Source: Dendronephthya gigantea (taxonomy: Eukaryota). From it: a stretch of DNA of 64,000 bases. The notes below the pieces were generated by a model. It did not search any database and was not told the origin of the DNA. It worked only from the letters and a program-made list of their open reading frames with translations. The stretch's first letter is position 1; every line of letters starts with the position of its first letter. A program made the translations under genes and the position numbers. Of the stretch, positions 5,262-57,100 are shown piece after piece. The stretch covers positions 2,099,271-2,163,270 of the forward strand of contig NW_021163026.1 of assembly GCF_004324835.1 (NCBI RefSeq), given 5' to 3'.

Positions 5262-5552
5262 ATCATGTCGCATGGGCTTCACATGTTACTCGCGTGTCCT
5301 TACAAACGAGAAAGCCCATGATTTGTTTTAAAATTTATGTTTAAAATTAGGAACGGTTGATCTTGTTGTAGACAAGATTTCAAGTACAGAGTTCGCTTCA
5401 CATAAAAGATATTTTTGGATATTTTTAGCCATATTTCATGCATGCAAGTTCTCTGCAGCTCATCGTAGACACGAGACAATTATGCAAGAAAGATATTGAA
5501 TATATTTATTTAATTCATTATTTTACATATATTTCACTGCGTTGTATTTAAT

Positions 5553-9383: not shown

Positions 9384-10286
9384 GTGCGTTTAAAAACACA
9401 CAAAAAAAGACAAAACACTCGTGTATCATTGTATATATATCTAGCTTTAGATTGTAGCGGTTTTCAATAAATTAAAACAATCCAAACTTTCTGTCATTTG
9501 ATGTTCATTTTTTGCTGAGAAAATCTCATTATAATATCTTTTATTCACAAGTCACAACCTTATTAAATTTTCCTTATTAAATTAAACTTATTAGACCACT
9601 CGTATACTCACTGCCTATATACTCCCTATTCCGGTGCTGTCCATGACAATTAATCAAATACTTCGATTTTCATAATATATATTCTCATAGCTAATTTATT
9701 GACTTTGGTTTTAACATATGGCATTGCGTGCTCTGGAAATATTAATAAAACTTATTCCTTTATCTTAAGTTACCCATTTAACATGCAGTATATATAATTC
9801 AGCGGTTTAATAAGATTTTTTCATCACGGGGATGGCAGCTGAACTAGCATGGTATAATTCTAATTTCACTGCGTCCATATATAACCGGCAAATTATAATT
9901 AGAAAGAATGTTTAATTAGTTCAGTGTATATGTCTTGAGTATTCATTTATTTTCTGGTGAAGCTTAGTGGATAAATGTTTCAATGAATAATGGTTGAAAT
10001 CTTGTAACGTTGTGGAAAATAGAATGTGGAAAGAGAGTGCAAGTCTTTTATGAGCGGCAAAATTATCGGAGGTAAAGTGCCTTAACACGATATTGCATTA
10101 AAAGAAATTGTTGGATATACGTTTAAACAATTTAAATATTTATCCAACCAAAGACTGAACTGGACAGAGGAGCGCGTAACAATAGAATCTTATCATCTAG
10201 AAGTAGTGTCAAGAGAACAATTTCAACATTGCATATTTCCTGAAGTTGTCAATTGATCAAAAAAATCTTTACTCGCGAGCTGAACG

Positions 10287-11213
10287 ATGTCGATGAATAA
10301 AACTATAAATGAATCCTTTCTTTTGACGAAATTCGACATCTTTAACAAAATAACTCTTCCTATATTTATCTTATCTGCAGTAATATGCTGGCTAGTTAAT
10401 ATAAGTCTGTTGATAACAATATTTATCGACCGTTTGCATTGCTTGAAGAAAGCTTCAGGACTGTTCGTCGCTTGTGCAAATTTGTCGTCAATTGTCTCCG
10501 CAATTTCGAACGTACTCTTTGCCTTGAAAAATTCAACGGGAACAAGAAACAGAGATCGCGTCTACTCAGACATCGTGGTATTTCTGATTGCCTCGTCCGT
10601 CACAAGCAACCTGGGTTTTATCGTTATATTGTCCGTCGAGCGTTTGTTGCTCACAGTCAAGCCAATGCGATACAAAATATTCATGACGCAGACCAAAGCG
10701 AAAGTCATTGCCACTTTTACATTCATCTTTTGTATTTGCTTGGGATTGCTTTGTTTCTGGATTGTAACGTACCAAAAAGATCTTTACGTCTACTACGCCA
10801 TTCCTATAATTATGATGATAATTCCTATTATCGTCGTGGATGCCTTAACTTTCTGCAAATTGAAGAAACCAAACAGAATTTTGAGTACGATTGATGGTAG
10901 CGATATTCAGCGTGCAATGGTCGCACGATATCGCGTGGAGAAGCGTTTTGCCCAAGTTGTTTTGCTGCTGTTGATAAACTTTGTGTTATTCTCGTGCCCT
11001 GTACTGGTTCTAGATTGGATTGGGCGCTTCGATAGCACATGCTCTGGTTGTTTGCTAGCGAGTAAGATGAACATGAAAACAATGTATTTTTTTGTGCTTC
11101 TGTTAGGGCAATTCCACGCAACAAATAGCGCCTTATTTTATCTTGTTCTCGTTCCTAAATATCGTCAATCATTCAAAGCGACATGGAAAGCAGCCATTTC
11201 ACATATTTTGTGA
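10287..11213 (+). CDS. Intronless class-A GPCR, 308 aa.
   Basis: ATG at 10287. Seven TM segments, LSVERLLLTVKP after TM3, and NSALFYLVLVPKYRQSF in TM7. It is a paralog of the other three GPCRs, sharing the KRFA/KYRxSF tail motifs. Confidence 0.85.
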   Translation: MSMNKTINESFLLTKFDIFNKITLPIFILSAVICWLVNISLLITIFIDRLHCLKKASGLFVACANLSSIVSAISNVLFALKNSTGTRNRDRVYSDIVVFLIASSVTSNLGFIVILSVERLLLTVKPMRYKIFMTQTKAKVIATFTFIFCICLGLLCFWIVTYQKDLYVYYAIPIIMMIIPIIVVDALTFCKLKKPNRILSTIDGSDIQRAMVARYRVEKRFAQVVLLLLINFVLFSCPVLVLDWIGRFDSTCSGCLLASKMNMKTMYFFVLLLGQFHATNSALFYLVLVPKYRQSFKATWKAAISHIL

Positions 11214-11757
11214 CTAACCAGACAGTATTCCAGTAAGCCTTACTATGCCTTAAAAATTGACATCTTTTGTTGCTTAAGAAGCAGTCTATTTGTAGATGTG
11301 TACGAAAACGGAAAGATTCATGTTATTTTTGTGCTTTATTTCAAGTAAACTATGATACAAGTAAACTATGACAGAATAATACACGTTTATACTCTCGACT
11401 GTTTCTGATTGAAGGAAGGCTTCCCTCAGTCTTGCCGAGAAATTAAGAAAGAGGTTTTGCCTGTTTCAACCTGTTTCTTGCGTGCGGAATGCGACGAGAA
11501 AGCGTGACGCACGCACACGAAGCTTCGAGGTACAAACACGCGAGACATCGAAAGTCATTGAATTTTCAACCAATGGCCTTTCAACAGCTACTGGTCTTGA
11601 TATATATACATATAGCCTACTGGAGTAAGGCAATGGTAATTTCGAAATTGTTGCAAGGCAATAAAATTACGTTTCACAATTGGATCATTTATCTGTGATT
11701 AGAATAAAGTATACTACAAAAATCTAGCTAATTAACCATCAGCTATTACGACATTTC

Positions 11758-13308
11758 TTACACAAATATCGAGCACGCCAGTGCTAGCACAAGCATTGAC
11801 AATAAAGTCATCGATGAGATATTCTTTCTTACTGCCACGTTCACGATTCTTTCGATCTCAGTCTGCGCAGAGCCTTCAGTACCATAAAATGCAATCAGCG
11901 GTATCCACATTCGTTGTACGCTCTGCATAAACATATGATACTCATCGTCCCAAATATAGAACCATAGATTTGTATTCAATTCAAAATACGGCGTACTTGC
12001 AAGGATCTTCGAGGCGTTTCTAGCCGGGCTGATCATCACATATCCCTCATTGCTCCCCACATCAATATATATCTTCTGCCTCGGTCTTACTCCCCTGTGC
12101 TTCATCAGCGTGCTCCTCGTAAACTCGTATCCAGCGTCGTCGGGAAACGTCGCGTTCTCGGGAAATGGCCACCATAGCGATGGCGACATGCAAGCTGCTG
12201 ATCCAAATGTTTGAGGGCGCGTCCAGATGGCGTGGCACGATATCATGCCGCCAAGAGAGAATCCCATAATGCCGTAGTTCTGAGGACCCGCGAGGCTCCG
12301 GTACTTCGACTCACATTCCGGGATCAAAGTGTCTTGGATGAAATCCAAGTATAACTGACCATTGACCTTAGGCATAGCAAGCCACCTGTAGCATCGTCTG
12401 TAGTCATCGACTAGTTGTTCATAAGAACAAAACGAGGATCTACACGATACACAACCGTTGCAGCGGTTTTGCATCGTGCCATTTATGCAATGAACATCAG
12501 TGCCATTACTAACTGCGAGTAACCGTGTCCTGTTCGCGTAGGAATTAACAACTCCAATGACCAGAACCTCTTTAATCAAAGCTCGTTCTACCATCAAAAT
12601 ATTCAGCTGCGGTAACAAAAGGCCCAGTCGTTGCCCGTCGTTGACAAATAATGTTTCATATTTTTTATAAGTATTCTCTTGAAAACTTGGCGGCAAAGAT
12701 ACGTTGATTGAACGAGCCTCGCCCAATTGCGGTGAGTATATTGTTCGCCTTTCAACCGTTCCCTTCTCGTTGAAAAACCACGGATACTCCCAGAACTCTG
12801 GAATCTTGCTAGTATTTTTAACGTTCGTTGACATTGGGAGGTTTAAAAGAAAATTTGGGCCAAGCATGTTTTTCGAGTCGTCCAAATAAACACGAAATTC
12901 AAATCGCGCTGGCGGTTTCTTCCCGTTCACCAGATCCAAATTACTTGGTATGGCGTATTCAAGTCGAAGCTCCCATGTATCTTGTTGTGTTTTATGCATT
13001 ATTCTTCCTTCATCCCAGGACAATCCGAGCCCGCTTCCACGCACAAACATCTTTGAGGCATCCACGAATGCGTTCTTTGCATACTCGTTGCGTTCAGGAT
13101 AACGAATTTTGATGCGGAACGGTTGAGCCGTTGGATTAAACGCTAAATAACATTTCTTTTCGAAACAGAAGCCAGGGTTTCCGTCCTTCGAACATGGCGA
13201 GGCATAGGTTTTTGCAGTCTCGCAAAACTTATCGCCGGTTGGTTTACCATAGCCTGTTGTTGTGCAGCAGACGGACAGGAACAAAAGCCAAGCTATTTTC
13301 ATTTTCAT
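11758..13308 (-). CDS. Intronless secreted alpha/beta-hydrolase of the putative-esterase (esterase D / enterochelin-esterase-like, PF00756) type, 516 aa.
   Basis: The minus-strand ORF is open from 13461, but a signal peptide MKMKIAWLLFLSVCCTTTGYG starts at the Met at 13308. The N-terminal region is Cys-rich. The motif RRTIYSPQLGEARSINVSLPPSF...YETLFVNDGQ resembles the RxxxVYLPPgY...LYLLHG lead-in of PF00756 enzymes. The nucleophile elbow is GFSLGG and the C-terminus is a hydrophobic tail. Confidence 0.8.
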   Translation of the reverse strand: MKMKIAWLLFLSVCCTTTGYGKPTGDKFCETAKTYASPCSKDGNPGFCFEKKCYLAFNPTAQPFRIKIRYPERNEYAKNAFVDASKMFVRGSGLGLSWDEGRIMHKTQQDTWELRLEYAIPSNLDLVNGKKPPARFEFRVYLDDSKNMLGPNFLLNLPMSTNVKNTSKIPEFWEYPWFFNEKGTVERRTIYSPQLGEARSINVSLPPSFQENTYKKYETLFVNDGQRLGLLLPQLNILMVERALIKEVLVIGVVNSYANRTRLLAVSNGTDVHCINGTMQNRCNGCVSCRSSFCSYEQLVDDYRRCYRWLAMPKVNGQLYLDFIQDTLIPECESKYRSLAGPQNYGIMGFSLGGMISCHAIWTRPQTFGSAACMSPSLWWPFPENATFPDDAGYEFTRSTLMKHRGVRPRQKIYIDVGSNEGYVMISPARNASKILASTPYFELNTNLWFYIWDDEYHMFMQSVQRMWIPLIAFYGTEGSAQTEIERIVNVAVRKNISSMTLLSMLVLALACSIFV

Positions 13309-14857
13309 GGGAGTCTGAAAAACGTATCTTTCGTTCATCAACAAAGATCTTCGTCTTCTTCTGAACGAATCTTTTGTAGTAAAATCCTTTGATGCTGGCG
13401 TCTCTGCGACTCTGAAAGATAACACAATAATCCCGTGTTTATAAAAGCGCTGTCGAGCCACTCAAAATAACATGAAGTTGTACAAACAATGCCAGATATT
13501 AGCAAACTATGATATTCAGTTGCCACTGGCAATATCCTTTGAGACAACTCTCTTATCCTCAAATAGACAAGTACATCATTTGAGTTCTACCATAAATAGC
13601 TTGTTAATATGACCATTCAACCAAATATATCAGATTATACCAAATCTTTCCTGAAAAAGGTATTTTTCACCAATTAACGTGAATCTAAGTTTCCAATGAA
13701 CGAGGATGTTGACAAGTTTAATTTAAGGACATGAAATTAATTCGTGACAGGAATTAAATGACTTTTTTCATATTTTTTCAAGTCAGTGTAATTTACCAGG
13801 ACGAGTTTCTAGTTTTCACGAATTTCTCTGCAGAAATTCTTCACCTTTTTCAGGTATCTTTGATGAAATTGTTGCAATTCCCATCCTAGTATGTTTTATC
13901 CAAATTAAAACGAAACAGTCTTGAATGTGACAGGTCTGAATTTAATTACTCAAATCGTTAGGAGCGTAACGTGCCTGTCAGATGCAATAATTTAACCAAA
14001 CGAGGACGTAGTGTGAGGATTATTTAATAACATCCTGTGTAAACACCCTGGAAATTGCGTAAGGAATTTGGCTCGAGGATATTGCACTATTGTGCTTCAA
14101 GATGGGAGGATTATTAGCGGGGGCTGAAATAAAGCGAGGTTGAAATCTTGGATAATCATGCGATTTGCAAATACACGTTTTTTTCGGAATCGATATTGTG
14201 GGGTTTTAATCACAGGCGCACGAGACAGAACGTAGAGGGTATCCCCTCCAGATTAGGCGAATGTTCGCCCACGCTGAAAAAAGAAATCTGGGGCCGTAGA
14301 CCTGTGGTTTTCATTGTTATTGTTCAGAGCGAGATAGATAAATAAATGCTAGTTTTCATTCGGTCCTTGCTCGTCTCTACAAGTGGTAGATGAGAGTGTC
14401 AATATTTCAATATTCGTCTGGTAGCATCAAAGCTGATGTGCATGAACACAATAACACAACTATCCCACATCCTTCGCTTATCAGTGTTGGTACTCACAAA
14501 AGTATAGCGACCAAATGGAAAACAAGTTAAAGTCTTTTCCGCTTGCCATGCAGTTTACCCCTGTGATTGATGGATAACTCTCGAATGTCGTGCAGGCTTT
14601 GCATCCGAATTGGACCCGAACGTAATCCGAGGATCCCATCGGATCACGAAAGCGTTTTGTCGTGATCACGAGGCTATATTCACACGAGCGTCGTTTTGAA
14701 ACTGTCTCCGCGATCCAAAGGGTAAATTGCTAACTCTTCTTCTATCGTTAAATTGAAAGTGCTGGTCTGTTTGACCATGTGGAGATAGCCAATTCCAGAA
14801 AAACTAATTCTAATGATTTTTAAGAAAAAGGCGAGTTTGGACAGCAACTTGCATCCA

Positions 14858-15097
14858 GGGGTCGGTTGTATCAAGCCCGTTTAGCTTAAACGGTGAATGA
14901 GTCAAAATTAAATAACACTCTTACAACTCTCTTGAATAAAACAACTTGAATATCATGCACTGAATATGTAGTTGTAAACAGTTCTTTGTATTAAGGTAAA
15001 AAACATTCAGTTCGCTTGTTGAATAAAACGGCAAACTTGCTTTCTATTTTGAACTTATCCACCGTTTAAGCTAAACGGGCTTGATACAACCGGCCCC
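14858..15097. mobile_element. MITE-like element, 240 bp, with 38-bp terminal inverted repeats.
   Basis: Left TIR 14858..14895 is GGGGTCGGTTGTATCAAGCCCGTTTAGCTTAAACGGTG. The reverse complement of the right TIR at 15060..15097 matches it with 1 mismatch. The interior is AT-rich and non-coding. Confidence 0.7.
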
Positions 15098-18000
15098 AGG
15101 GATTTAATCGTACCGCGGATGCTTGACTTCAGCGTGACGTCATAAATTCCAGTGGCTTTGGGGGGCATCTCGAGATCGATACAAAATGATTTAGTTGTTC
15201 GTTGTAACAACGCTGTTGTATGTGCTGAATTTGTGGTTTGTAGGATTTGTGGTAAATCTGTGGAGTTTCAGTATTATTTTCTCGCTTTAAACGTCCAGTG
15301 CAGTACGAGTGTCGAAACCCAAGGTATTTGAGGCTGACCTCCTCTCACAAAAGTGATTGAAATTCCGAACAATGAAATCCGGTGATATACGTTGTTGATC
15401 ATAATTACTCGAGACATTTACAGTGGATATGATAACTCGAAGATAAAATACTGGATAACCAAAACTCTTAAAGAGCAATGTGGTTTCATAATGATCGAAA
15501 GAATCGTGAATTTCAGTAAAAATTTAAAGATTTCATCACCACATTCCAACTGTGCCAAAAGTTTCAACGCGTCTATATTACTCATATGCCGTATCGGGTA
15601 ATTAGTCGAAAAATACATGTAGCTATGTTTGTAAATTAAAATATATCTAATTAATATTGATTACCTTGTGTGTAAGAAAGTCCTGTTTCAAAAACCGAAT
15701 GCCTGAAAGTTTCTTTTAGGAAACATTTGCTCCGTGCTTCCTCTATTTTCATCGGTTTATGATTTCAAGGGTATAATAACCCTTGTGTGGGTTTTCCCTA
15801 TGCATACGATATTGTCTTTACTAGCAAGCCTCATTTTAATGCAATGTATTTTTTTAACGCCGAAGTGAGGCTTGGTGGTCAAGACGTCAAGATGATGGCA
15901 TAAGGGAATCGAAAAACCACATAAGTGCTATTGCCTTTATGAAACGGTTTCAGATTTCAGCTCGTGCATAAATTTCATGTACATATTTGCCAATCAAAAG
16001 CACGTTGGAAATTGTAAATGAAAGAATGCAAATTTTTTAACCGCTAATCGGAGGAGGATCTTTGCCGCCAGGGAAATATGAGCAGGATTTGTTCGGCATT
16101 CATTTGAGAGGTGTTTGTGACGTAGATATTGCTATAATCTTCAGAATCGGATGTAGGAGATCATGCCTCACGTTACAACATCGATAAAGTTCTCCAACTG
16201 TTACTTCTCGAAAAATCACAGATAGAGCACCCCACATTTCACTGAGTTCGTGTCAAAACAGTTGATATGTAATAGTATTTCAGGGTGATGTTTAATCTCA
16301 CAGTTCTCGTATGGTGTTTCCTTTGTATATTTAGCGTCAGATTTTCAGCCTTTCCTCGAGATGTTTCAACTTCATTTCCACGTAAGAACATTTTATTTCA
16401 CCCGGAAACACATTTTGTTCTGGATACTGCAGTTTTTGATTGGAAGGTTAACCTGGGATATAGTGGAACCTTTAATGGCATTTTTTTAAAATAATGATTT
16501 ATGATTTTTTATGTGGTGTTTGGATTAATCTCGTGTACGTGCCTTCTCCTTTTTTAGGATTCCTTTTAGCAATTAATCAATCGAAAAAGGGATTGGATCT
16601 GGTGGCAGGGGACATGCACTTCAGATATCAATTAGATCCATTCCTCCACTTGATTCATATTTGGCGCATAACATGACGTATCGGAAACAGATAAAGCCGC
16701 GTTCATTCGTCGCATGGTACACGGCAAAAAACGCTCAAGTTGTTCCTTGTTACGCTTAACAATATTGCAACATGTTGTTGAGAACATTGTTCGTGGGGTG
16801 CAGCACAACATGGTTGAGGACTGTTCTCACCAACCGTGAACAACTTGAGCATTTCTTACCGTGTACAAACACTCGTGTTTCGTGTAATATGACACATGTA
16901 ACATCAAAGAAACTCTTGTGACTGTACACATGGCCTGTTGTCACCTGACCGCCGTGACGTCATTAATGTCCGCATTCCACTTACAAACTAAACCACCATT
17001 TTAGGATATACTTAATTTCCCAGTATTATAAGTACGTGGGGATATTTGATCAACATCCTAAATTCATTACGCGGTTACAAGGTTCGGGACTTCGGGAATC
17101 CTTCACAAAAGCTCTTCCACAAAGAAACCCCCTAATATGAGACATAATATGTTGTGTATACATCAGCCCCAAGACACTAAACCACGCAGTGGTGATTATC
17201 AGGTTCATTCCTGCTGTTACTGGCAATTGTTTTTAAAGCATTCAATATATTTGGCTCAAATCCAAACCGTATTATAAGATTTACGAATTTGCCTGTTGAT
17301 AATCCAATGCCTACAATTTGTGAATGAAAATACAACATAATTACCATTGGTCATTTGAATAATGGCATGTTAAAAATTTGCGTCCCACATTCTGCCTAAA
17401 TCAGTTGCCAAATTCTGTTACAACTTACAAGCCGCAAGAAGCTCACACTCGCAAGTGGAAACATGTTAAATTAGAGGGTAAACTTATATATTGCACATGC
17501 ATGCCCAATATTTTGATTAATATCTTGTTACAAGAAAATAATTCATTTCATGATGGGCGTAAATGTAAATCTATTAGCTCGTCATGTTTATCAGGTAATA
17601 TGCTGTATAAGGCTACAGGGGTTTGTGTATATAAAAATAATTGTAAACATCGCAACCAAACCGAAAAGTAGGGAATCTGTAGGTGAGGAATACTTCATGT
17701 AGCCATTTAATGTCTGTCCTTCGGCTAAGTCATGTATAGAACACAATAAACTGATACAATTTTAGCATTCTTCCCGCCAAAAGTAATTCTATTAGGGTGT
17801 AATTGGGTAACATATATTATTGGCTAATATCCAGATTGCTCGCAAGCTTTTAGGCGTGCGATTATTTATATTTTCAATCTGAAGATGCAAACATTTCGTT
17901 TATGTCTGTGCTTTTTCCTAATTTGCAATGTGTATACACCGTAATTCATAACATTTCCCTTTCTTCCCGCCAAAATTAATGGCAATTCCGAGAAATAGCC

Positions 18001-18300
18001 TTTGGCATGCGTTGTTATTTTGGTCTATATTACTTAATTCGCTGCTGGAATGTCAACAGGCTGTTAAAATGGGCGGTTCGTCGGAAACAATAGTTAATGG
18101 GTGAAGAATATCCAATCACATATGCACTCGCACTGGTGGGTGTCTAGTTCAGCCAATCAGCTTCGAGGGCTCAGGTTAATTTGTAGGGGGGTTTAAGGAA
18201 TAGAGCAAAAAAACCTGCAAAAATAAGAGCCTTTATACACGTGTCACTTTGGAGGAGTTTTCGACGCTTCATAGTTTTATAGTAGCTTATGTAGACTAGA

Positions 18301-21300
18301 ATGGATGCAAACGAACTGTCGCCTCCAGTGGTCCCTACGCACGATACAAACGGCGATCCTGGGTAAATATTTTACTATTTATGTATGTGTAGCATGTATA
18401 TGCCTTGGGTATAACTGTGTGTTGTGTAAAATAAGGAACAAAGCGAGTGAATAATAACATTAGCAGCCAAATACTTAGAGGCTTAAATTTCATCGCGAAT
18501 CTTTTCGCTACTTTCTAGGAAAATTTTCGTCGGAGGCCTTTCTAAAGTCACGAACGCTGGTAAGTTTCACAGAAACAATTTGTAACATCGCCAGCGCATT
18601 GTCGATTTCAAATGATGGGGTTTGTTTACGTTACTGGCTTGCTTTGAACATGGCTCGTTCGAGTGCTGGATCACGAGTTATCTGATCAGCTTTTGTCATC
18701 GAGCATCATGCATGTATTTCCTTTTAGACCGTTTGAAAGAATACTTTAGCAAATATGGCGAAATCAAGGAGTGCTTGGTTATGCGTGATCCTGTGACCAA
18801 AAACTCCAGGTAAATTTGCAAAGCTGTTTATAGCTCCCCAGCGGATTTCAAACGCTTTTTGACTAATGGCGATTACGCGTCTCACGCTTCGATAGACACC
18901 TTGAAATTCAAGTTCTCGTTTTGTTTCACTAAAGGTGCTTCGGATTCGTAACATTTCAAGATCCAAACTCGGTCGAAGATGTGGTCAGTTCAGGGCCTCA
19001 TGTGCTGGACGATCAAACAGTTAGTGTATACAGTATATTCAAAGCTATTTTCTCTTTATTTTTGTAAATTATACGACTTGTGTCAAAGTGTCTGTTATAT
19101 TGGCCAGCCGCAACCGTTTGTGTTGCTCGATCTTCATATTTTACCACGCGGAATTTATTCTGTAGAAATGTAACAAAATTGTAAACTTGCGGAGTGCGGT
19201 TTCAAACAAAACCGTTGTGTTATTATTGAGTTCAATCCCTCTTCCGCTTTTTCAGACAGCCTTCTTTGCACTCCTATAGAACTCTTGATATATAGTATAA
19301 ACACATTCGCTTTGTGTGCTACGAATCTAGTCGGTCTATGATTTAAACGTCGTATATTTACTCTATGTTTTACAGATAGATCCAAAGGTTGCCATTCCAA
19401 AGCGGCCTCAACCAAAGGTATTAAGTTTTTTAAACAGGAGAGTTTATAATATCGTATTTTGTAACGCTTAATTCCTGCTAGATTGACACAACAGACAACC
19501 CGTTTATATTAAATTTTCTTACGCAAACACAGTGCATATGGCTACGAAAGGTCTTGTATTTTACAGAGATAGGAAGCTAGGCATGTACTGTACATTATTG
19601 ACGCTTTATTTACAACGTCTGCCAGCGAGACAGACGGCAGACCCCTACTATTCGGTTTCAAATTATGAATGTCTTTCTTTACACAATAACCCCGTGAGGT
19701 AAGACACGTTTTTATCGACTTCCGCTGCTGAAAATCCGCTAATTTCCAGCGTATAAAAGTTGCCTGTTTTATTAACCACCGCTCAATTGAGCAACGAACG
19801 TATAAACACAGCGAAATTAATCGAAAATATTTAAAGCGTTCTCTGTTATTCACAAATACAGCGTGTCAAAGACAAGATTGACAGCTACCAGAGTCAAGGT
19901 ACAAAGAATATAATAATGCGTGTCATCTTTCGGTTGATATGATAAGCAGCTTGAGATATTCGTGACGAATGCGTGTTTTTTTGTCAAAGCACGATTTCGA
20001 GCCTCGTGATTCAAGCTTTACTTTTAAGCCCTACATAAGCGATCAGAGCAAACACTTTTTAATTCGTTGTTCATTTAGCGTGCCAGCGCGGAACTTTGGA
20101 GCAATTGCATACAGCGTGTGTGACTGTGCACGATAACTATAAAAGCAAATATATTTAAAATAAGTTAATTCACATCATCGGAAAACGAAGAAATAGCAGG
20201 GTTTTTTTTAAATTTAAAAAGTTTCAATTATAGTCAGGCCTGTAATTTCAAATTTTATTATCGATTAAGGTGTTTAATATATTGTAAATAATGTCCTCGG
20301 TTAGATCTGCAAAGAGGTTATAATAGCTTGGCTTGTATCTTTCTTTCGGTCGCATCCGCGTGGGTTTAACAAGACATGAAATATGAGATACTTCCAGTGA
20401 CGTTGTACCGCATAACTTGTCATTTATGGAGAAAAGTTTACTTCTTTTTCCTTTTTATTTACACGAAAAAGAATAACAATATTTCTCAGCGTTATTATAC
20501 CAATCAATTGTCTATTTTCAGGCGGCCAAAACCTGCTTATTACCCCCTTAAATCGTGTTTCAAAACTGCGGTAGATCTGTTTGTGAATCGCGTCATATGC
20601 TCCAAAGCTCAAAGACAAACATCTTAGGCCAAGTGGAGAATCTGGCTTATTACCATATACTGATAGCCGAAATGTAAAATATTCCGTATTTCCGTCGTGG
20701 AAAAACCTTCCTGAGTTGGAAAATCCGACTCTTTATATAATGCACTCTTATAAATTGGACTCTTTCGCCAATTCGGACTGTTTAAATCGAAAGGGACATT
20801 TGTTTATCGGTAACTCAATAGCCAGGTTTTTTTATATGGAGTTTATACGATTATAAGCCTAGCTGCTTCATCCGAGTGAGATAATCCCCGAAAGAGAAGA
20901 TTTTCTACCACAAAATGTGAAGAATTTTAACCATCTTTCCACAAAGGCGCGTGAAAAGCTCAGTGCGAAGGCATGACCTGCGCTTTTTCCAGTAACGCAC
21001 CGAAGGGCTGAAACTCAAGCATATTTTCACTTACTGCTGTTTAATGTTTACTAAAACAAGAAATAATTACAGAAAGCTATTAAGGACATTTCAGTATTGA
21101 TGACAATGCGCCTTCACGCTGTTTTCCCGTTCCACTACATAAAAACGGAAGTTGCAATATAAAACACATAATACCGTGTACTTAATGTCCAAACGCTATT
21201 TCCGAAAGCCACCACTCTTGATTTCCTGCATGAAGTATTTTGTTTTTTCATAAGATAGTCACCAAAGCGATAGTCAGCAGTGCGCCTTTCAAGTTTTAAA

Positions 21301-40353: not shown

Positions 40354-41658
40354 GTTGCGCTAATAACAGGAACTCATTGTGAAGACTTCTGTGGCTATGG
40401 CTTTTGCCCCGCTTTCTGACTTCCCTTTCAGTAATAAGCTTGGGAAATTAATATTTATTTACTACAAATAGTTGAGTAAAAACAAATTATTCGTTGTTTA
40501 CGTAACCTAAATGTAGCATCCAATTCAAAATTGTTATCCGGCTGTGTGCGATTGTGTAGGTTTTTGGCTTTCTGCTAAGATTGTTGCGATAAATAATCTT
40601 TCCCAAAATAATTAATTTGTGGGATTTATGTTTCCTGAGCGTCTGAAACAGCCTGTAATTGCAACTTCCCACGTCTAATTGTAATTCAAGATAGGATCGA
40701 GTTGGCGTTCCTGTCTCTGTTATTAAAATAGCGTAAACAAAAACGCATTAGGCGGTAAATATCACATCCAGTAAAATATGTACGAAAAAGCATTTTAAGC
40801 GGTGAAAATCATGGTTTTACAGTAGGTTTCTATAGATTGCGCGCGGCAACCCAAACTTTTGCGTTTCCCAAACTTTTGCGTGATAATTTTAACGCGATAA
40901 ATTTTTCGGGAATTTGAGCTCCGCGGGAATCCAATATGGCGGCATTCAGCATCAGCATTAACATTACAAAGAAATTGTTTACCTTTTTTCTTCCAAGAAA
41001 TGCACAAATGACAACTATTCTAGAGGGTTAAAGACATTTTGAGAATGAAGCAGTTACACAGAAATTTAGAAAAAGATAGTTCGGGGTTTGTATGTCTTTA
41101 AAAATTGGAGCATTAACTTGCATTTTATGTGAAGGTGCAAGGTCTATAAAAGAAATAAAAGAATGGGTCCGTTATCGAAGAGTATAAAGTTTAGTGTTGT
41201 CTATTTTGAGTCCATTATTTTGGTTTTAATATTTCTTAGGCCAGTGACAAATAAATGTAATTTTTTTCTGTTCAGCAGAGTCAATCCTATGAAATAATAA
41301 AATTTAAAATAAATCAAGTTTTCCTACATGTACAAAAAAAGCCCTGGAATTTCACTGTTTTCCTTGTTCAGGCCTTCCTTGAATAGATAGAGCCAGGCAC
41401 TCATTTTGCAGAACCATCAAAAGCTTTTTTAGGGGGGGTAGGCATGGGGGTCAGGTTAAAAGGGGGGGTGGGGTGAGGAGGAGAACTGGTTGAGAAGGTG
41501 ATGTCCTTCATCCCAAGTATTAAGAAGTGAAAAGTTGAGGCTCGGACATATTAGCATGAGGGTTGTCAGTTTTGGCATAGTTCCACCTCATGCTGACTTT
41601 ACATGAAAGACGTCCAGCAAACTTTAGTTAGTTATTACTAGTTGACTTATCATCATTG

Positions 41659-44600
41659 ATGGATTCCAGGGTGATCGGACTTATTCCAGATGAACCAGAA
41701 GATATGTGGCACGCTTACAATCTTATTGCTGTTGGGGATAGATTAAGAGCTACCACAATTAGGTAAACATGATGAAACAAATGTCTAGGATCAAACCACA
41801 TTCCTGTCTTGCCTGTTAGCATCTAAGTGTATCATACACTGGCCACTTTCTACTAGTATCCATTGGCTTCAGAGTCTCCCTGTGGTATACTAAACAGACT
41901 GACAAATCCATGTTTCTTTCATAGGCGGGTTCAGAGTGAGTCTTCAACCGGCTCAGTAAGCAGTAATAAAGTTCGGACAATGTTGACCATCCAGGTGGAA
42001 GGTGTGGAATATGATACACAGGCATGTGTTCTGAGAATCAAGGGAAGAAATGTCCAGGAAAACCAATATGTTAAAGTACGGTTATGTATAAAAGTGATCT
42101 CCCACAAAGAACAAAATTTGCATAGTTAAATCCTATTTAACTCCTATTTAACTCAGAAATACACAACTCTGATTGGCCAATTCTGTCCTTAACTACAGTT
42201 AAAAGTTAACTAGCTAAGTCTTTTATATGGTACAACTGACCCTAGACCAATCCATACAGAAAAGGTTTAACATAAAAATCCATAAAATCATTGTGCTACC
42301 ATGCATTTTTTTATAATTCTAGATGGGAGCTTATCACACCATAGACTTGGAACTCAATCGAAAATTTACGCTTTCAAAAGACCACTGGGATTTTGTAGCT
42401 CTGGAAAGAATAGGTACTGAATAATTTCTAGCATAGCCTTCTTTTCAGCTGGGTCTCATCCACGTTCTTCCTGATCTTATTCATGTCTTTGATTTGTGTT
42501 ATTACATGATGAATTGACCTAAATTGATTCTATATAAGCTGACCCTTGAGGCCATTTCTCTTTGTGAATATTATGCTCAAGTTTATATCTGATCCTATGT
42601 TTTAGATTTAGCATGTGATCCAACACAGCATGCTGATTTGGGAGCAGTTATTATGCATGAAGGTCTTTGTCATGTGTGTCTAATCACAGCCAGTATGACA
42701 TTAGTTCGTGCTAAGATCGACATGAACGTCCCCAGGAAACGAAAAGGTTATTGTGGGCAACATGATAAGGTATTAAATATTTCAGGCCTCTGTTGGACAT
42801 TGCCTAGTGAAATGTGTACATAGCATTTCTGAACCAACTTCTATAGAAACATTCCTTGTATCTTTAACTGAACTAGCTGTTAGTCTGTCACGATTATATA
42901 GCAAAGATTATAAACATTTTCTTTTTTAGGGGATAATGAAGTTTTATGATGCAATTATTCAGGCAATTGTTAGACATATCAACTTTGACAGTAAGCATAC
43001 CAGAAGATATTAGATATGTAGTAATAAGTATACATTTGGGTTTGCTAAGGCATTGCTTTAGTTCAAGTTATACCACAGAGGAAATATAGCTGTATTTGCC
43101 AGATAGCTCAGTCTATGAACTCCTTTGTGTCTCTCCTAGTTGTCAAATGTGTTCTCCTGGGAAGCCCTGGTTTTGTCAAGGTAACAGTACAAAGCATATT
43201 TTCTCTAAACATTGTATTACCTATTCAAAAATTCTTCTAGTATATTACAGCAAGATATATCACATATACATTGTACCTTTGTATAGGATCAGTTCTCAGA
43301 ATACATGTTCAACCAAGCAACCAAAAATGATTTAAAAGTTCTCTTGGACAATAAGTCGAAATTTTTATTGGTAATTTGCCTTTAAATGAAATTGGTATCA
43401 TAGAATAGAATTCAATGCTCTGGATGTAAAACAGTTTTTCACTGATATTTCAGGTGCATTCATCCTCTGGCCATAAACATGCTCTTAAAGGTAAAAAAAT
43501 TTTAACTGTTTGACAGTTGTTGTAAGATATGCTGTTGAGAAACAACCAAACAAGACAACTTCATGATTCTTGAAGTTACTCTGCTAGCAGCTCCCTCTTT
43601 GTTGCTGCTCAGGGTTAATTTTTCACGAAGACCATTATTTCTTTAGAGATTCTCTCAGATCCTGCAATTGGTGGTAGAATTTCAGACACCAAGGTAATGA
43701 AAACAAGGCATTTGAGTGAATGATAAATCCTCATAAATACTGATAAACGCATGTCTGGTTTTCAGGCCAGTGAGGAAGTAAAAGCGTTGGATAATTTTTA
43801 TCAAGTTCTTCAAAATGACCCTGATCGGGCGTACTATGGGTGAGCACAGTTAGAAAATCTTTCCATTCATTGCAGTACTACAACTAGTGCAACTTAGTGT
43901 TAACTGTTGCTACTGAAACTAGCCTGACTAGTCTAGTACTTACTGCTTTGCAATGTTTTATTCAGTGTTTCTCTTTCAACCTGACTCAATGTCAGTTGAT
44001 CATTGCAGTACTGCTAGTCACACTGAGTGTTGACTGTTGCTACTAATACCAACCTGACTAGTCTAGTATACTGCTTTGCAATGTTTTATTCAGTGTTTCT
44101 CTTTCAACCTGACTCAATGTCAGTTGATCATTGCAGTACTGCTAGTCTGACTGAGTGTTGACTGTTGCTACTAATACTAGCCTGACTAGTCTAGTACTTA
44201 CTGCTTTGCAATGTTTTATTCAGTGTTTCTCACTTATTTTTAGTGTGAAACACGTTGAGAGTGCGAATGAAGTGTTGGCCATAGAGACATTGCTTGTGTC
44301 AGATGAATTATTCAGGTGTGAATTTTGCGTTACTTTAATACTGAAACAAATATCTTTGGGTTGTGGCTCAGTGTAGGTAGTATTCTACAATAAGAACTAC
44401 CTGAGAAAGATATCTAAAACGTGGTGGTCCAGTGTAGGTAGTATTCTACAATAAGCTGTCATGGTTTGTGTCTGAACTACCTGAAAAAGATATCTCAAAC
44501 GTGGTGGTCCAGTGTAGGTAGTATTTTACAATAAGCTGTCGTGGTTTGCGTCTGAACTACCTGAAAAAGATATCTCAAACGTGGTGGTTCAGTGTAGGTA

Positions 44601-45449
44601 GTATTTTACAATAAGCTGTCGTGGTTTGTGTCTGAACTACCAGAGAAAGATATCTCAAACGTGGTGGTCCAGTGTAGGTAGTATTCTACAATAAGTTGTC
44701 GATGTTTGAACTACCAGAAAAATTAAATTAAAATTCGTATCTATTTAGAGCTAACGATGTAGCGGTGAGAAAACAATACGTGAATTTGGTTGAAAGTGTG
44801 AAAGAAAATGGCGGAGATGTAAAGTAAGTTGAAATGAATATATAAAATATGATTTGAAAGAAACACTTTCCAAGTTCTAGTTTCCTCTCGTTGTTTCACT
44901 AGAATATTCTCAAGTCTTCACGTGTCAGGAGAGCGTAAGTCCTGTGATTTATATCTTAAATGCAAAACCTTTGAAATATGGCATGCCTGAAGAATTTCCA
45001 CAAATAGAAATGTGTTTGTGCTTCAATATGATATGACAGTCTTCTGCCCGAATATAGCTCTATCTTACAGTAATATCTTTCATCGTAATTATCGCTACTC
45101 TGGTTTTAATAAATAGAAAGTAATCACCACACAAAGATTAACTTTCACGACCCAACGTTTTGAAACTCCGGTCTAGTGTCTTCATCAGGGAATAAAGACA
45201 CTAGACCGGAGTGCCGAAACGTTGGGTCGTGAAAGTTAATCTTTGTGTGGTGATTACTTTCATTTATTAAAACCAGAGTAGCGATAATTACGATGGATTA
45301 TATACCTGGTTGCCGTAAACTCATTAAATTCAATTCGTTGCAATTGAGTAATGCCTTTTTTAGAATTGGGTCAGTTGTCGGGTGTGGCAGCCATATTAAG
45401 ATTTCCTGTTCCAGACATAGTGGATGACGATGAAAGTGACTCAGACTAA
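41659..45449 (+). CDS. PELO: Pelota / Dom34 ribosome-rescue factor, 14 exons, 372 aa.
   Basis: Exons 41659..41762, 41925..42075, 42323..42413, 42606..42769, 42930..42990, 43140..43180, 43287..43370, 43455..43491, 43647..43693, 43766..43839, 44244..44315, 44749..44823, 44903..44934 and 45364..45449. Total 1119 nt. The translation is collinear with Pelota: [192 protein letters not shown], and [29 protein letters not shown]. The N-terminus is ~14 aa shorter than vertebrate PELO, so a short upstream coding exon cannot be excluded. Confidence 0.85.
43845..44240. repeat. Tandem repeat, ~125-bp unit in ~3 copies, in Pelota intron 10. The last copy supplies the acceptor of exon 11.
   Basis: Repeating unit CATTGCAGTACTGCTAGTC(A/T)(C/G)ACTGAGTGTTGACTGTTGCTACTAATAC.AGCCTGACTAGTCTAGTA..CTGCTTTGCAATGTTTTATTCAGTGTTTCTC... 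Confidence 0.8.
44370..44745. repeat. Tandem repeat, ~77-bp unit in ~4.5 copies, in Pelota intron 11.
   Basis: Unit GTGTAGGTAGTATTCTACAATAAGCTGTCGTGGTTTGTGTCTGAACTACCTGAAAAAGATATCTCAAACGTGGTGGTCCA. Confidence 0.8.
45081..45295. repeat. Near-perfect long palindrome (hairpin) with ~100-bp arms, in Pelota intron 13.
   Basis: Left arm CATCGTAATTATCGCTACTCTGGTTTTAATAAATAGAAAGTAATCACCACACAAAGATTAACTTTCACGACCCAACGTTTTGAAACTCCGGTCTAGTGTCTT. A short loop CATCAGGGAATAA follows. The right arm is the reverse complement of the left, apart from one small indel (AAATAGAAAG vs AAATGAAAG). Confidence 0.8.
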
Positions 45450-46133: not shown

Positions 46134-46400
46134 TTGAAGCCCGTGTTTGGATCAGGCCATCCAAACACGGAAATTTCGTGGGAATTTAAAAACAAATTTA
46201 TAATGGTTAGTTATTTTATAAAACAATTACTTAATGGTTTCCGTGTTTGGATGATCTGATCCAAACACTTGGGAATGTTGCTCGAGTTAAGAAAAGCTCG
46301 CAAAACACTCGCCTTCGGCTCGTGTTTCGCGCGCTTTTCTTAACTCTCGCAACATTCCCGCGTGTTTGGATCAGGCCATCCAAACACGGAAACCATTAAG
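46134..46400. repeat. Complex nested inverted-repeat element; a DNA-transposon/MITE remnant is likely.
   Basis: The 30-bp palindrome CCGTGTTTGGATCAGGCCATCCAAACACGG occurs at ~46141 and ~46359, with a variant at ~46240. Separate inverted repeats lie between the two palindrome copies: GTTGCTCGAGTTAAGAAAAGC / GCTTTTCTTAACTCTCGCAAC, and AACCATTAAGTAATTG. Confidence 0.6.
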
Positions 46401-46824
46401 TAAATGTATATTACCACGCTTTATTATAGAATTATATCTGAAAAAATACAACCAAATGGATCTTTTGCCTTTTGGAGTTTTACTTTTTACACTTAAAACT
46501 TGCGAAAAAATCATATTCTATATAAGATAAATTAAAAAATATCTTGCACAAAAACTATAAAACTCACGCTATTCTGCTCCATAAAAACGTGGTGTAGCAG
46601 GTTGTGTGTTTATATGCAAGAAAATTAATGTAAACAATACCATTAATGGAAATACTGAACAAATATGTACGAGCATTAAAAATAAAATGGCCGGGCATTC
46701 CTGTTTCTTTTGTGTATTTTGGAGATTTCGCAAGGGACGATGTGTTCAAACAGACAGTTTACGGTAGTTTTTAGACGCTTGGTTAAGCTTTACAACAAAA
46801 TCGGCTTAGGAGATTGAATTACTC

Positions 46825-49800: not shown

Positions 49801-52800
49801 CGTCTCTTCAATTCTCGCAGCAGTCACAAAGATCCGTCTCTGCTTAAAACGGCTCCTCCGATCTACAAGAATGCTTTTCACAATCTCATGAACACCGGAC
49901 CACAAGGTGTCATCAAAGTTTGGACTGAAATGTTTCTCACAGACATGCAGTACGTCAGTTTGTTAGTAAAACACGAAGCAACCGCATTTGAAGTTATCAA
50001 GATGGTGTTGGAAAAATCAAACGCTAAAGAAGACCCGGAGTGTTATCGAATTTGTGAAATAAATGAACATAAAAAAGGTTGGTAATATCCGTGTATTTCT
50101 TTACGTATAAAACCAGACATGTACTAATGAAAAAAATACCAATTTCCTTGGACTTTTTCCCACTTAACACATGAGATGAACTCTGGAGATATTTCTTTAT
50201 TGCAGAATATATTTTGGATCGAAATGAATGCCCGCTTCAGCGGGAAAGAAAGTGGTCTGACCCGGATAACTGTAGGTTTGAACTGAGATGGCGCAATGAA
50301 AGACTAATTGAGGTATTTTAATTTCAAGTCTTATGGTTGTAACATGCAATAATCTGTGCAGATAAATATACTAAAAGAATGGATGAAAATTCATCTTTCT
50401 ATATTTTTTCTGTAGTGGGGATCCACTGCTGAAGATTTATCAAAGAGGGCGATTAATGAGGTGAGTTACAGCATGTGCGATTTTCGTCTTTTGATAGATG
50501 TGAACGAGTAATAAGTTACGAATGCTCTGATGTGTAAGAGCTCCTATTTGAACATCAGTAACTAATTCACTCGTTCACATCTATCAAAAGAGGAAAATCG
50601 CGTATTAAATCGCAGCAAAAATTGCAAGTGTAAACTGGTCTTTCTTAGCCAAAACTAAGGTGGTTTTAACGGAAGTATACATGGACCTCAGACACAGAAA
50701 TGAACGATGCATAGCATACTCCCTCCTCGTTCAAATCAAATATTCTGATATGTCCAGTTATTTAAGATATATTTGTTTTTAAAGGAACCTCCTCACCAGG
50801 GAAATCAGGACGAGGTTCAACCTAACAACACGTCAAGTCCTCCCTCGAGTGTTTCCACATCAGAGGGGGATTCTCCTTTATCCAACGAGAAAAAACGCAA
50901 TAATGTCATGGAAACTGAGTTTGCTTATGTCGTGCAATTGGATAACGAGAAAGAGGAGAAAGAGTCTGAAATTGATACGAGAAAGTCTGAGGTCAAAGAA
51001 GAAACTACCCCAAATGATTCCCAGAATGCTTTAGACCCCTATAAAGCTGGTGATCCAGACTCTCTACAAAATGCTCCTGTGAGACTGGTTTCCTCGTGCC
51101 CTGATCTTTCCAAGAAAGATGCGATTGATGGTGATCCGGAATACGGGAATCTTATTGTTTCTAAGAATTTTGGTTTCTTGAACGCTGAAATGGCTGACCT
51201 AACGGCTATCGACGATGAGCCTACGACAAATCTCGATAGCTCGTCGTCCTCCTCGGAAGAAATCGACACCTCACCGACCGTTAACGAGTTTGAGTACTCG
51301 CAGCAGCTTCGTAGATCTTCGAAGCGGCTATCCGACCGTTTGAGGTTTCAAGGAAAGCCGATCATTGAGGGACAGGCGGTTGAGATAGGGATAAATGCGA
51401 GCAACTTGGATGAAACGAGGACAGTAAAGGATAGCATCGATGGGAACGATGGTGAAATAGGGAAGAATGGTGGACTATCAATTGATAGAAGTGAAGGTAG
51501 TAATGGGTTACCAGGGGATCTTCTTGAAATTACCCGAGCAGATTTGAGCGCTGGAGGGGAAAATGCCTCGGATATTTCCGAGGCAAAGGTTGTTATGAAT
51601 GGGCATGCGCATGTAGACGAGACCACGGTAGAGCAGCCTGGGAGTGAGGCAGCGCTACCTGGGAACGAGGTCTCCCCTCCTGTAATTTCGCCAGAAGTTC
51701 TGAAAAGGATCGAGGAACTCGAGAATGAAAATTTACTTTTAATCGAAGACAATCGTGAGCTAAAAAAGAACTGCAGAACTTTTGAGGGAAGAAGCCGACT
51801 AAAAGAGCGGGAATTAGAAGAAATGGAATTAGAAAAGAATGATTTGACCCATCAGGTGCAACACATGGCTGTCGAGCTACACTCGTTGAGAGCGACCAAC
51901 ACCGAACTTCGTGCGGAGGTTGACGAGGCCAACACGAAACTTGGTGATGTCGATGGCTGGGTCACGCGGGACGTGTTCGAGGATATTCGTGGACAGTTGT
52001 CCGTGAGCGCCGAGGAATGCGATAAGAAAGATGAGGAAATTAGAGAAATTGAAAAGAAATGTAAAAACCTAGAAATGGAGAATAAGAAAATGCAGGAACT
52101 TGAAATGGAAGTGGATAAACTTAACGAAAGAATAAAAGAGGACGGGAAAGCGACGGAAGAGACAAGAAAGAAGTTGAGAGATAAGGAAAAGAGTGTATTA
52201 GAGCTCGAACTGAAAGTTGAAACATTAGAAAATTCCTTACAAGAAAAGGAAGGCAAGTTAGCTGAAGTGGAGGCTGAGGCAGAGGGTTTACGGAAGACTG
52301 GTGCAGAGGTGAAAAAAGATTTGCAGAAGAGAGTTTCTGATCGGGAATACGAGATCTTGATTATGAAGGAAGAGAAAAAGGAGCTTTGTGTGAAGATGAA
52401 AAGTTTTGAAAGCAATGTAGAAACATTGCGAGAGGAAATGAAGAAAAAAGACGCAGAACATGAAGAAGCCATTGCTGAGATTGAACGACAGACCGCCATT
52501 AAAGATGAGGTGTGTTTTTGTCATGTAGAGTTTTATCATGTTCTTAAAGATAGCAGCTATATTAGCTCTTCTTTAGGGACCTTCATCTTCCTAAGTTCAT
52601 GAACTTGAATTCATCACAAGCCCAGCATATTCCGCTTGACTTGACGAATGCTGAATATTGGTTATATTTTATAACAGCAATTGTATGCCATTTTTACAGA
52701 GTCTTTCGGTGATGGTGTCCAATCTCGAGGAACTTGTAAACGAAAGAGATATGAGAATCAAGCAGTTGAAAAACCAAATTGCGCTCTCGGTAAGAACATA

Positions 52801-54111: not shown

Positions 54112-57100
54112 TTAGGAGTGGCTAAAAGTTTGATAGCCCCCCTGGCTGTCGACGTTCAGCGACGGATTTTTCCGACGGCGCCACGTGAACAGCGCGATGA
54201 GCAATACCCCGACCAATAACGTGACACCAACTGTAATTCCGGCCGTTGCACCTGCGCTCAGGCTGCCACCCTTCGATGAGCCGCCTTCTTGTTCTTCCTT
54301 TTGTGCTTCCATTCTTTCCCGGAGGTTTTCAACAGCTCCTTTTGATGGGTTGATTTTTCGTAATGACATGTTCATTGACATGCTAAAGTGAAAAATAGAA
54401 GAGTGTCAGCTTTGTCGCTCGCATTCAGTTAATATAAAGAGATCTGTGGCGAAGTAAGGTAGGGTGCCATACATTATGCACAATCTACCTTAGAGTCAGT
54501 TCCATCCATTTCTCTTTGTGGGCATCAAAACGTACGAAAACCTTGTTTGTGTCATTGTTTTCAATCATCAGCGGGAACATAACTGCCTTGTTTCGACTGG
54601 GTTTCCTGTGGAACGGAGGTCGCTTGATGGTTGGTAGTCCTTGTGACGTCAAAAAGTTTGCTTTGGTACAGTAATTGATTTCACAGTCCTCATCAATCAC
54701 TGCCAGATGTTGCGAGTAGCCGCGAGGGCAATGCTTCGGAAATGCTGGAGGTCCATTACTCATGACATACTTAACCAAACCTGAAAAATGATTCCTTTGT
54801 AATGAATAGCTTTATCAATTCTAAACTGTTCTTCCTAGAGATCCAGTAAGGATCATCTCTCATTGATCCAGTGTTACTACAGGAGGAAACCTAAACTAAA
54901 CTAACTTTATTTGTACTGGATAGCTCTTTCAGTTCTAAACTGTTCTTCCTAGAGACCCAGTAAGGATCATCTCTCATTGATCCAGTGTTACTACAGGAGG
55001 AAACCTAAACTAAACTAACTTTATTTATACTGGATAGCTCTATCAGTTCTAAACTGTTCGTCCTAGAGACCCAGTAAGGATCATCTCTTATTAACCCAGT
55101 GTTACTACAGGAGGAAACCTATACTAAACTAACTTTATTTATACTGGATAACTCTATCAGTTCTAAACTGTTCTTCCTAGAGGTCCAATAGGAATCCCCA
55201 TTTTATCTCTTGCTTGTTCCACTGTTTTTAGTGAAGAGAAGAAATTACCTTTACGAGAGGTCATTGCCAGGGGGTTGCCAGCTGAACAGCTCATAAAACC
55301 ACCGAATGGAATGCTATACTGGGCTCCCAGCTCATAATCATCACTGATACATACATACATATCTTTAGGACCGAATCTCTGGGGGTAGTACTTGACCGGA
55401 CACTTCTTAGCTTTGGTAATAATGTTATTAGTTGTGTCACTGTAAAGACCACCAAATAAATAACCTGGGAAATACAAATGCAGATAAATGAAGCACGTTG
55501 TTTGGGAGAAACATTCTTCAATTCATAACCCCACCTACCAGATTCCTGTGGGACACTCCCCTCCGCCGCACACCAGAAGGTTGAGTAAACTCCTCCACCG
55601 CAGTTTGTGTCACATGATCTAAAGACCCACCAACCATGACAAGAGGTTTGACAATGCGTAGCCAGCGTTCCATCGTGTAAGCGGATAGCCGTGTAACCAG
55701 CGGGGCAGCTAAAAAAACAAAAGGCTTTGAGCGGATCTTTCCTGGTTTCTATGCACTGGCTAATTTGCCGTCACAAGACTCAAAGTTCAACGTTTATTTC
55801 CACCCCTTTATAGGTAAAATCATTCCGAGTTTCTCATGTTACCTGTATCCTTGTGTCTTGGGGTTTTTCTGCGTGTAACCCACACACGGGTCGGAAGGTG
55901 GTGAGCCAGTTGGTGAGCAGGTCTGGTAAACTCCTCCAAATGTGAAATTGGTTAACAGTGTCTTGCAGGAATGGTCGTCTAAATTCGCTTGGAAGTTGAA
56001 GTTTGGCGAGTCCGCATCAGTGCAACCTGAAGATAAAAATGATGTGAAGGTTTCTTGCTCTCCTCTTTTAGAAAACATGGCCAGGAAATTATATTTTGTA
56101 CAAGAAAACAACTTCAAGATCGTACCTGTAATGGCGTTATTTTTGTAATATCTTTGAAGCGATTTCAAAACCAATGCACTCAACTTGAACGTTATCGTCT
56201 CGGGTAGTTCAGGCAGAGCTTCAGTTGTGATGAGGTAATGCAACGGGTCTCCTTCCCGATCGATAGCTACGAGATTATTTACGAGATTTTCCTCCCAGTA
56301 TGAAATGGAGAAATTGTCGCGAATCGGAGGACCTCCGTAGGTGTAGACTGAGGAATCCATGACACTCTTTTTGTATGTGTCGCTGACTGTGTGCGTGTTT
56401 AAGTGAGAAACCGATCCTGATGCCCCAAATGTTCCAAAGAACGACGCGCTCGCTGAAGCTGTGAAAATATAAAAGACAAAATGAAATTGGAATTGTAAGA
56501 CTTAGATATTTCTCAGGTCCAAGAGAAAACCTGGGAGTTTGATACAGAAAACATTGCCCTTAATGTTACACTATGTTTTCTAAGGTGGGAGGACTTCAGT
56601 CTTCATGGAAGAACAACAGTTCTTAAGGTAAACCAAATTTCATTTCAAGAAAAAGCGTGGTCTTGTGAAGACCTGTGGGAATCACACTTGGTCCTGGTTT
56701 TGCATCGATACCAAATGTTTTCGTTTTCAACGAAGCAAATTCGTGTTCCGCAGTAATATTTTCATGGATGACGAACATGAAAACATCTGAGGAACCAGCA
56801 ACGTTTTGTGAATGTCTTGTTGTAGGAAATATTGTTTTCAATGTCTTGGCAGCAATGTTTTTTTGGTCACTCAGAACTTTGGACTTGTTCTGTTATACAT
56901 ACAAGTACTTTTTTTTGGGAACAGCACTTCTGGAAGACACTGACCTTTCGTTTCCTGTCGAGTTGTGTCCTTAGATGCGATGTACGTTTTCAGAATGTGA
57001 TCCATCTTGGCCAGAACTCCCCCTGAGTCAACACGCGTGATGTAGTGCGTGCCGTAATCACGCACCAAGATATCCGCAAGGAAACGAGCCACGCGCATGT

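Follow-up and report, generated by a model that had tools for sequence, protein, structure and literature searches.

A near-perfect palindrome of 215 nt lies in the last intron of the Pelota gene of the octocoral Dendronephthya gigantea, within a stretch of 64,000 nucleotides (64 kb) that is referred to throughout as the window. With modest confidence, we read the palindrome as a recent, non-coding, foldback-type miniature DNA transposon (MITE), consisting of inverted repeats from end to end. A preliminary description of this DNA listed three possible origins, namely a hairpin-RNA locus, a foldback or MITE transposon and palindrome formation associated with replication. The foldback/MITE type is favoured by the absence of the palindrome from two other octocorals, its youth, its CpG richness and the presence of further inverted repeats around it. 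The palindrome is best filed as an element of the foldback/MITE kind that is so far an orphan, and as such it is an ordinary type of feature.

The Palindrome and Its Host Intron

The stitched exon translations of the host locus find their best match, in a protein search, in Pelota of D. gigantea. Exact spliced mapping of this 382-aa protein places 15 coding exons on the + strand at 41045-45449, with every residue reproduced and a GT-AG boundary at 14 of the 14 introns. The mapping confirms the sense-strand location within a Pelota intron that had been proposed, although the intron was given there as number 13 and is actually intron 14, the last; intron 13 is 79 nt long. Within intron 14, 146 nt separate the palindrome from the 5' splice site and 68 nt separate it from the 3' one. 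The features of the locus are as follows.

44903-44934, + strand: Pelota coding exon 14 (spliced mapping)
44935-45363, + strand: Pelota intron 14, the last intron and host of the palindrome; 429 nt, GTAAGT...TTTTAG (spliced mapping)
45068-45080, + strand: weak outer continuation of the inverted repeat on the left, CAGTAATATCTTT; complementary to 45296-45308 at 8 of 13 positions
45081-45182, + strand: left arm; 102 nt, with an extra A at 45115, variant bases at 45161, 45163 and 45164, and 5 CpGs (arm alignment, fold)
45183-45194, + strand: apical loop or spacer, CATCAGGGAATA; 12 nt, unpaired in the RNA and DNA folds
45195-45295, + strand: right arm; 101 nt, reverse-complementary to the left arm, with 6 CpGs (arm alignment)
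45296-45308, + strand: weak outer continuation of the inverted repeat on the right, GATTATATACCTG; pairs with 45068-45080
45364-45449, + strand: Pelota coding exon 15, the last, with the stop codon (spliced mapping)

Both arm alignment and a repeat search bear out the near-perfect palindrome of about 215 nt that was reported at 45081-45295. It is A+T-rich (38% G+C), and its length rises to 241 nt when the weak outer extension is included. The arms, described earlier as reverse complements of about 100 bp with one small indel, are indeed of this kind and are identical at 98 of 102 positions, but three clustered mismatches have to be added to the 1-nt indel (the A at 45115). These mismatches fall within four positions, at 45161, 45163 and 45164 against 45216, 45214 and 45213, and the arms are otherwise identical; the first of them (45161 against 45216) is a G-U wobble in the RNA of the + strand. 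The loop measures 12 nt rather than the 13 nt originally given. Outside the arms, the inverted repeat continues weakly over 45068-45308, where 8 of 13 further positions are paired (P ~0.011), and this extension contributes 3+4 additional base pairs to the RNA fold.

Terminal inverted repeats, a short length (below about 800 bp) and a lack of coding capacity are the marks of MITEs and foldback elements. The palindrome carries such repeats in its arms of 102 and 101 nt, is well within this length and has a longest stop-free stretch of 50 codons.

The folding energy, suggested earlier as a check, agrees with the hairpin structure. RNA of either strand folds into one continuous hairpin with a minimum free energy (MFE) of -176.7 kcal/mol, compared with -51 +/- 4 kcal/mol for dinucleotide shuffles (z = -29.8 and -31.0 for the two strands), and none of 200 shuffles folds as well. 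The DNA fold has an MFE of -114.2 kcal/mol (z = -25.9). The folding of the palindrome thus far exceeds chance, and both strands are equally good folders, as expected of a DNA palindrome. The long inverted repeat gives an extended double-stranded RNA (dsRNA) stem of about 100 bp, as is found at hairpin-RNA (hpRNA) and endo-siRNA loci, and its position in the gene implies that it would be transcribed.

Age, Distribution and Boundaries of the Palindrome

The main evidence for recent arrival from elsewhere, as opposed to a copy of the resident intron, is the contrast in CpG content between the palindrome and its host gene. The observed/expected (o/e) CpG ratios are given below.

Pelota introns 1-13: 0.23 (20 CpGs in 2,840 nt)
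Pelota exons: 0.56
Flanks of the palindrome inside intron 14: 0.53
Palindrome: 1.41 (11 CpGs in 215 nt)
Upstream GPCR cluster in the window (region 4001-20000): about 1.1 (1.05-1.12)

Each arm holds 5-6 CpGs, whereas 0.71 would be expected at the rate of introns 1-13 (Poisson P = 8e-4), and arm density is also high against the flanks within intron 14 (P = 0.015). None of the 1,593 windows of 101 nt in introns 1-13 contains at least 5 CpGs, whereas over the full 64 kb the proportion is 26%. Mean CpG o/e in D. gigantea is 1.03 for repeats and 0.84 for gene bodies (PMC8857923). The composition of the palindrome resembles that of repeat DNA, unlike the CpG-depleted Pelota gene body. The depletion of Pelota is consistent with a broadly expressed gene that may be methylated in the germline, and the CpG contrast, as far as composition can date an insertion, supports a late arrival of the palindrome. 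The palindrome is young, because its arms are identical outside the mismatch cluster and the indel and because the five CpG sites common to both arms are intact in each (5/5). Where the right arm has its extra CpG, the left arm has TG, as classically produced by deamination. At the scale of the window, the contrast between Pelota and the GPCR-rich region is the bimodal signature expected if germline methylation affects a broadly expressed gene and spares tissue-specific ones.

The orthologous Pelota loci of two other octocorals, Paramuricea clavata (L001) and Xenia sp. (L002), together 45 kb, were compared with that of D. gigantea. The Pelota exons align well and the last intron does not. This intron is 69 nt long in Xenia sp. 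(L002 15056-15124) and 459 nt long, unrelated and G+C-rich in P. clavata (L001 9617-10075), and the arms have no match in either Pelota locus. The palindrome is present in D. gigantea and absent at the orthologous sites, although the introns cannot be aligned and no exact empty site is reconstructed. From this comparison, the palindrome is lineage-specific, neither ancestral nor conserved. The last intron of P. clavata is itself inflated relative to that of Xenia sp. (459 vs 69 nt); the added sequence is G/C-homopolymer-rich, repeat-like and unrelated, so that the same intron seems to have been hit independently in another octocoral lineage.

Searches for copies and homologues cover DNA, protein and RNA families. 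In the 64-kb window, blastn at word size 7 returns self-matches alone, and the arms have no match beyond 15 nt elsewhere. K-mer scans with three patterns, including the apex hairpin, find no copy of the palindrome among 2.9 million viral contigs, and a single scan of prokaryote genomes gives no match. In a metagenome scan, the arm 21-mer AACTTTCACGACCCAACGTTT occurs in nine contigs that represent one bacterial locus, which is ruled out as a homologue since the match extends over 21-23 nt only and is a single chance coincidence. Six-frame translation, a search that would also pick up copies called as ORFs in public assemblies, finds no match among 5.8 billion proteins, even at E <= 10. Inverted duplication of a coding exon is the route by which some hairpin-RNA genes originate; because no protein is matched, the arms are not such a duplicate. 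At gathering scores, no Rfam family is present in the whole window. A relaxed local Rfam search of the palindrome yields sub-threshold, structure-driven matches to unrelated miRNA models. The best of these, a generic hairpin match to mir-28, scores 34 bits where the gathering score is 64. Neither a tRNA nor a SINE-like tRNA head was found in the palindrome.

A scan of all symmetric boundaries reveals no non-palindromic direct repeat that flanks the palindrome as a target-site duplication would. The candidates are all self-complementary, with ATAT outside the arms (45073-45076 and 45300-45303) and TA, AATT and TAATTA inside them; they are ambiguous because they are indistinguishable from the inverted repeat itself. 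Two particular configurations were considered and rejected. Tc1-like ends of the form TA|CAGT...CTG|TA are ruled out by the right flank, which is GT and not TA, and two independent head-to-head insertions of a short repeat are ruled out since the arms end at the identical base, 12 nt apart.

Small inverted-repeat elements are common in the window, which besides the palindrome holds six of the hairpin type; these are 125-250 bp long, their arms are 88-91% identical and one of them has a second copy.

14855-15100, 16717-16866, 32453-32667 and 35169-35370: four inverted repeats of 150-250 bp with arms 88-91% identical; no second copies in the window
46141-46407: second palindrome with long arms and a short loop, about 0.7 kb downstream of the Pelota stop; arms at 46223-46308 and 46322-46407, about 89% complementary
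50477-50601: inverted repeat with arms of about 51 nt, 88% identical; a copy at 30201-30314, 20 kb away, is 79% identical

By Smith-Waterman scores, which are within the range of shuffles, the palindrome at 45081-45295 is unrelated to these six, and it is the youngest and most perfect of the inverted repeats in the window. The elements at 50477-50601 and 30201-30314 represent a putative MITE-like family of D. gigantea that is demonstrably multi-copy. The palindrome at 46141-46407 is likewise unrelated in sequence to that in Pelota. It is built on three copies of a 32-nt mini-hairpin, CGTGTTTGGATCAGGCCATCCAAACACGGAAA (at 46142, 46242 and 46361), has a CpG o/e of 1.41 and in Rfam has sub-threshold matches to plant MIR models only. 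The inverted repeat at 35169-35370 has TTAA at its start and its end, possibly the mark of a piggyBac-type site, although the self-complementarity of TTAA makes this ambiguous.

Competing Origins and Expected Behaviour

Several observations count against the transposon reading. There is no unambiguous target-site duplication, and the inverted repeat fades across 13 nt at each end with no sharp stop. No second copy is found in the window, the 45 kb of octocoral loci or the k-mer scans, which is weak evidence as D. gigantea is sampled in the window alone. The palindrome is unrelated to the other inverted repeats nearby, and arms of about 100 nt round a 12-nt loop represent the foldback extreme of MITE architecture. 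The main rival is an inverted duplication in situ, in which about 100 nt of adjacent sequence is copied in reverse complement by a template switch, with the nascent strand using itself or its opposite as template, or by fold-back repair of a break, in one step and with no transposon. We regard this origin as unlikely. It would account for the absence of a clean target-site duplication, for the single copy across the window and two octocoral loci and for near-perfect arms, as expected soon after the event. The weak 13-nt continuation moreover resembles a pre-existing quasi-palindrome of the kind that seeds template switching. Template switching makes perfect hairpins in a single event, and 81 of 99 intragenic TSM-associated human miRNA loci are intronic on the sense strand (PMC10710096). 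However, a resident arm should be CpG-poor, whereas those observed carry 5-6 CpGs per 101 nt with about 0.7 expected. Under this model, the duplicated segment would itself have had to arrive recently. The template-switch hairpins documented so far have the size of miRNAs, with lengths of tens of nucleotides, and the arms of about 100 nt are longer. A relic of other foreign DNA with hairpin ends, such as a parvovirus-like terminal palindrome or a fragment of the terminus of a larger element that is not a MITE, would equally be young, CpG-rich, compositionally foreign, palindromic and without a target-site duplication. This is highly improbable, as no viral or other coding sequence adjoins the palindrome, the remaining intron amounts to only 214 nt, and neither the three k-mer scans of viral contigs nor the six-frame protein search gives a match.

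A selected small-RNA gene, that is, an hpRNA or endo-siRNA locus or a very long miRNA-like precursor with Dicer products that silence a target in trans, is improbable. In favour of this reading, the intron carries the hairpin on its transcribed strand, and the stem of about 100 bp is highly stable, with nearly all of its bases paired. Long hairpins are efficient sources of siRNAs in Drosophila (PMC12553114), and hpRNA-like clusters have been described from non-bilaterian animals (PMC6211395). Nevertheless, the palindrome is unconserved, being absent from P. clavata and Xenia sp., and its strands fold equally, with no sign of selection at the RNA level. Its arms have neither a coding match in six frames nor a window match above 15 nt, which leaves the inverted duplication of a target gene unsupported as their origin; a genomic target site of about 21 nt could still exist. 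The miRNA-like reading included in the preliminary description finds no support either. The palindrome belongs to no Rfam family at gathering score (mir-28 falls well below it), and its stem is about three times as long as the 30-35 bp of a canonical miRNA hairpin, in a phylum that apparently lacks very long miRNA hairpins (PMC12553114). It is a doubtful proposition that the palindrome is a newborn, single-copy source of long-hairpin small RNAs that arose de novo within a constitutively transcribed ribosome-rescue gene, either from a unique insertion or through template switching. No small-RNA studies of octocorals were found in the literature.

An assembly artefact, in which long-read chimeras or polishing would have generated a false inverted duplication, is scarcely credible, even though the source assembly is based on PacBio reads, for which palindromic chimeric reads are a known failure. 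Such artefacts would be palindromes of read length, usually at contig ends, and the present arms are 100 nt long and lie between correct exons. The arms also differ at four positions, which is unexpected of an artefactual copy, and the loop does not correspond to the SMRTbell adapter sequence. The D. gigantea assembly, which is 286 Mb in size and derives from a genome reported as highly heterozygous, combines 108x PacBio coverage with correction by 128x Illumina coverage (PMC6447388), and at this PacBio depth reads should span the element.

If the palindrome is a foldback-type transposon, it would have transposed into Pelota from another genomic site. It would have no promoter of its own and would be transcribed solely within the Pelota pre-mRNA. 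There, the stem of about 100 bp would be predicted to snap shut, looping out half of the intron and leaving about 215 nt of unstructured intron. Splicing would then remove the hairpin, and the Pelota protein would be unaffected. In the nucleus, the dsRNA stem would be an incidental substrate for which ADAR hyper-editing is expected and Dicer processing is possible, and the hairpin would not be a selected small-RNA gene. In the coral Acropora millepora, 61,340 of 79,341 genic hyper-editing sites are intronic (PMC5850803), and in Nematostella, endo-siRNA clusters that are structured and multi-mapping fall on transposons (PMC6211395). As DNA, a palindrome with a short spacer would be prone to hairpin or cruciform formation and to deletion, which fits the observation of only a young copy.

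Palindromic or foldback MITEs of animals include zebrafish Angel, the palindromic short repeats of C. elegans and human MADE1, the source of the mir-548 family. The palindrome is like these in being short, non-coding, A+T-rich, intronic and lineage-specific, in forming a hairpin over its whole length and in having inverted repeats of similar size in the window. It is unlike them in that it has no demonstrable target-site duplication and no other copy or autonomous partner in the sequence searched, and in its unusually short loop (12 nt) and unusually long arms (about 100 nt). Fly hpRNAs have identifiable target genes, are independent transcription units and show some conservation, whereas the palindrome is intronic and unconserved and has no detectable target. 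With the hpRNA loci of Drosophila, which give rise to Dicer-2 endo-siRNAs, it shares a long, near-perfect dsRNA stem of about 100 bp or more and, judging by its position, probable transcription by Pol II (PMC12553114). TSM hairpins are similarly near-perfect, sense-strand intronic, possible in one mutational step and without a target-site duplication (PMC10710096); they are miRNA-sized copies of adjacent resident sequence, unlike the arms of about 100 nt, which lack the CpG depletion of the resident intron. As with the hyper-edited repeats of Acropora, which are intronic inverted-repeat substrates of ADAR (PMC5850803), the palindrome would form repeat-derived intronic dsRNA that is co-transcribed with the host gene, although from one self-complementary element with a 12-nt loop and not from two repeat copies.

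Young intronic insertions of inverted repeats are routine in animal genomes, and the palindrome matters little alone. It does provide a clean case in which an intronic repeat can be dated and sourced from its sequence, since insertion and in-situ duplication can be told apart by the CpG contrast with a germline-methylated gene body. If it turned out to be single-copy or to give rise to small RNAs, it would offer a useful natural example, within an anthozoan, of a long hairpin of very recent origin. A newborn hpRNA or endo-siRNA locus, if this proved true, would show the birth of anthozoan small-RNA genes with plant-like extensive pairing. In cnidarians, dsRNA is reported to trigger an apoptotic response (PMC12553114), and intronic A-to-I hyper-editing is widespread in one coral (PMC5850803). 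For annotation, masking the palindrome as a repeat is appropriate, and a miRNA call is not.

Other Repeats and Features of the Window

Repeats account for the size of all three introns above 400 nt at the 3' end of Pelota (11, 12 and 14). In introns 11 and 12 (404 and 433 nt) these are tandem repeats, and intron 12 carries 10 of the 20 CpGs of introns 1-13, on account of which its repeat may be relatively young. Elsewhere in the window, a tandem cluster of intronless open reading frames (ORFs) has the appearance of seven-transmembrane receptors and is probably a lineage-specific GPCR expansion. Dispersed arrays of a 114-bp unit look like a mini-satellite or a mobile element that carries repeats. 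These features are listed below together with two low-complexity tracts.

4293-5261 (+), 5553-6501 (-), 8376-9383 (+) and 10287-11213 (+): intronless ORF tandem cluster, 300-335 aa
22144-22396, 24585-24856 and 54806-55182: short tandem arrays of a 114-bp unit, 2.2-3.3 copies, the third reversed
43867-44231: tandem repeat in Pelota intron 11, 128 bp x 2.8 copies
44394-44708: tandem repeat in Pelota intron 12, 80 bp x 3.9 copies
30859-30957: G-rich low-complexity tract with units of the type GGGAGGTGGGG
34361-34585: 10-bp microsatellite, about 23 copies of (CCATACCTTA)
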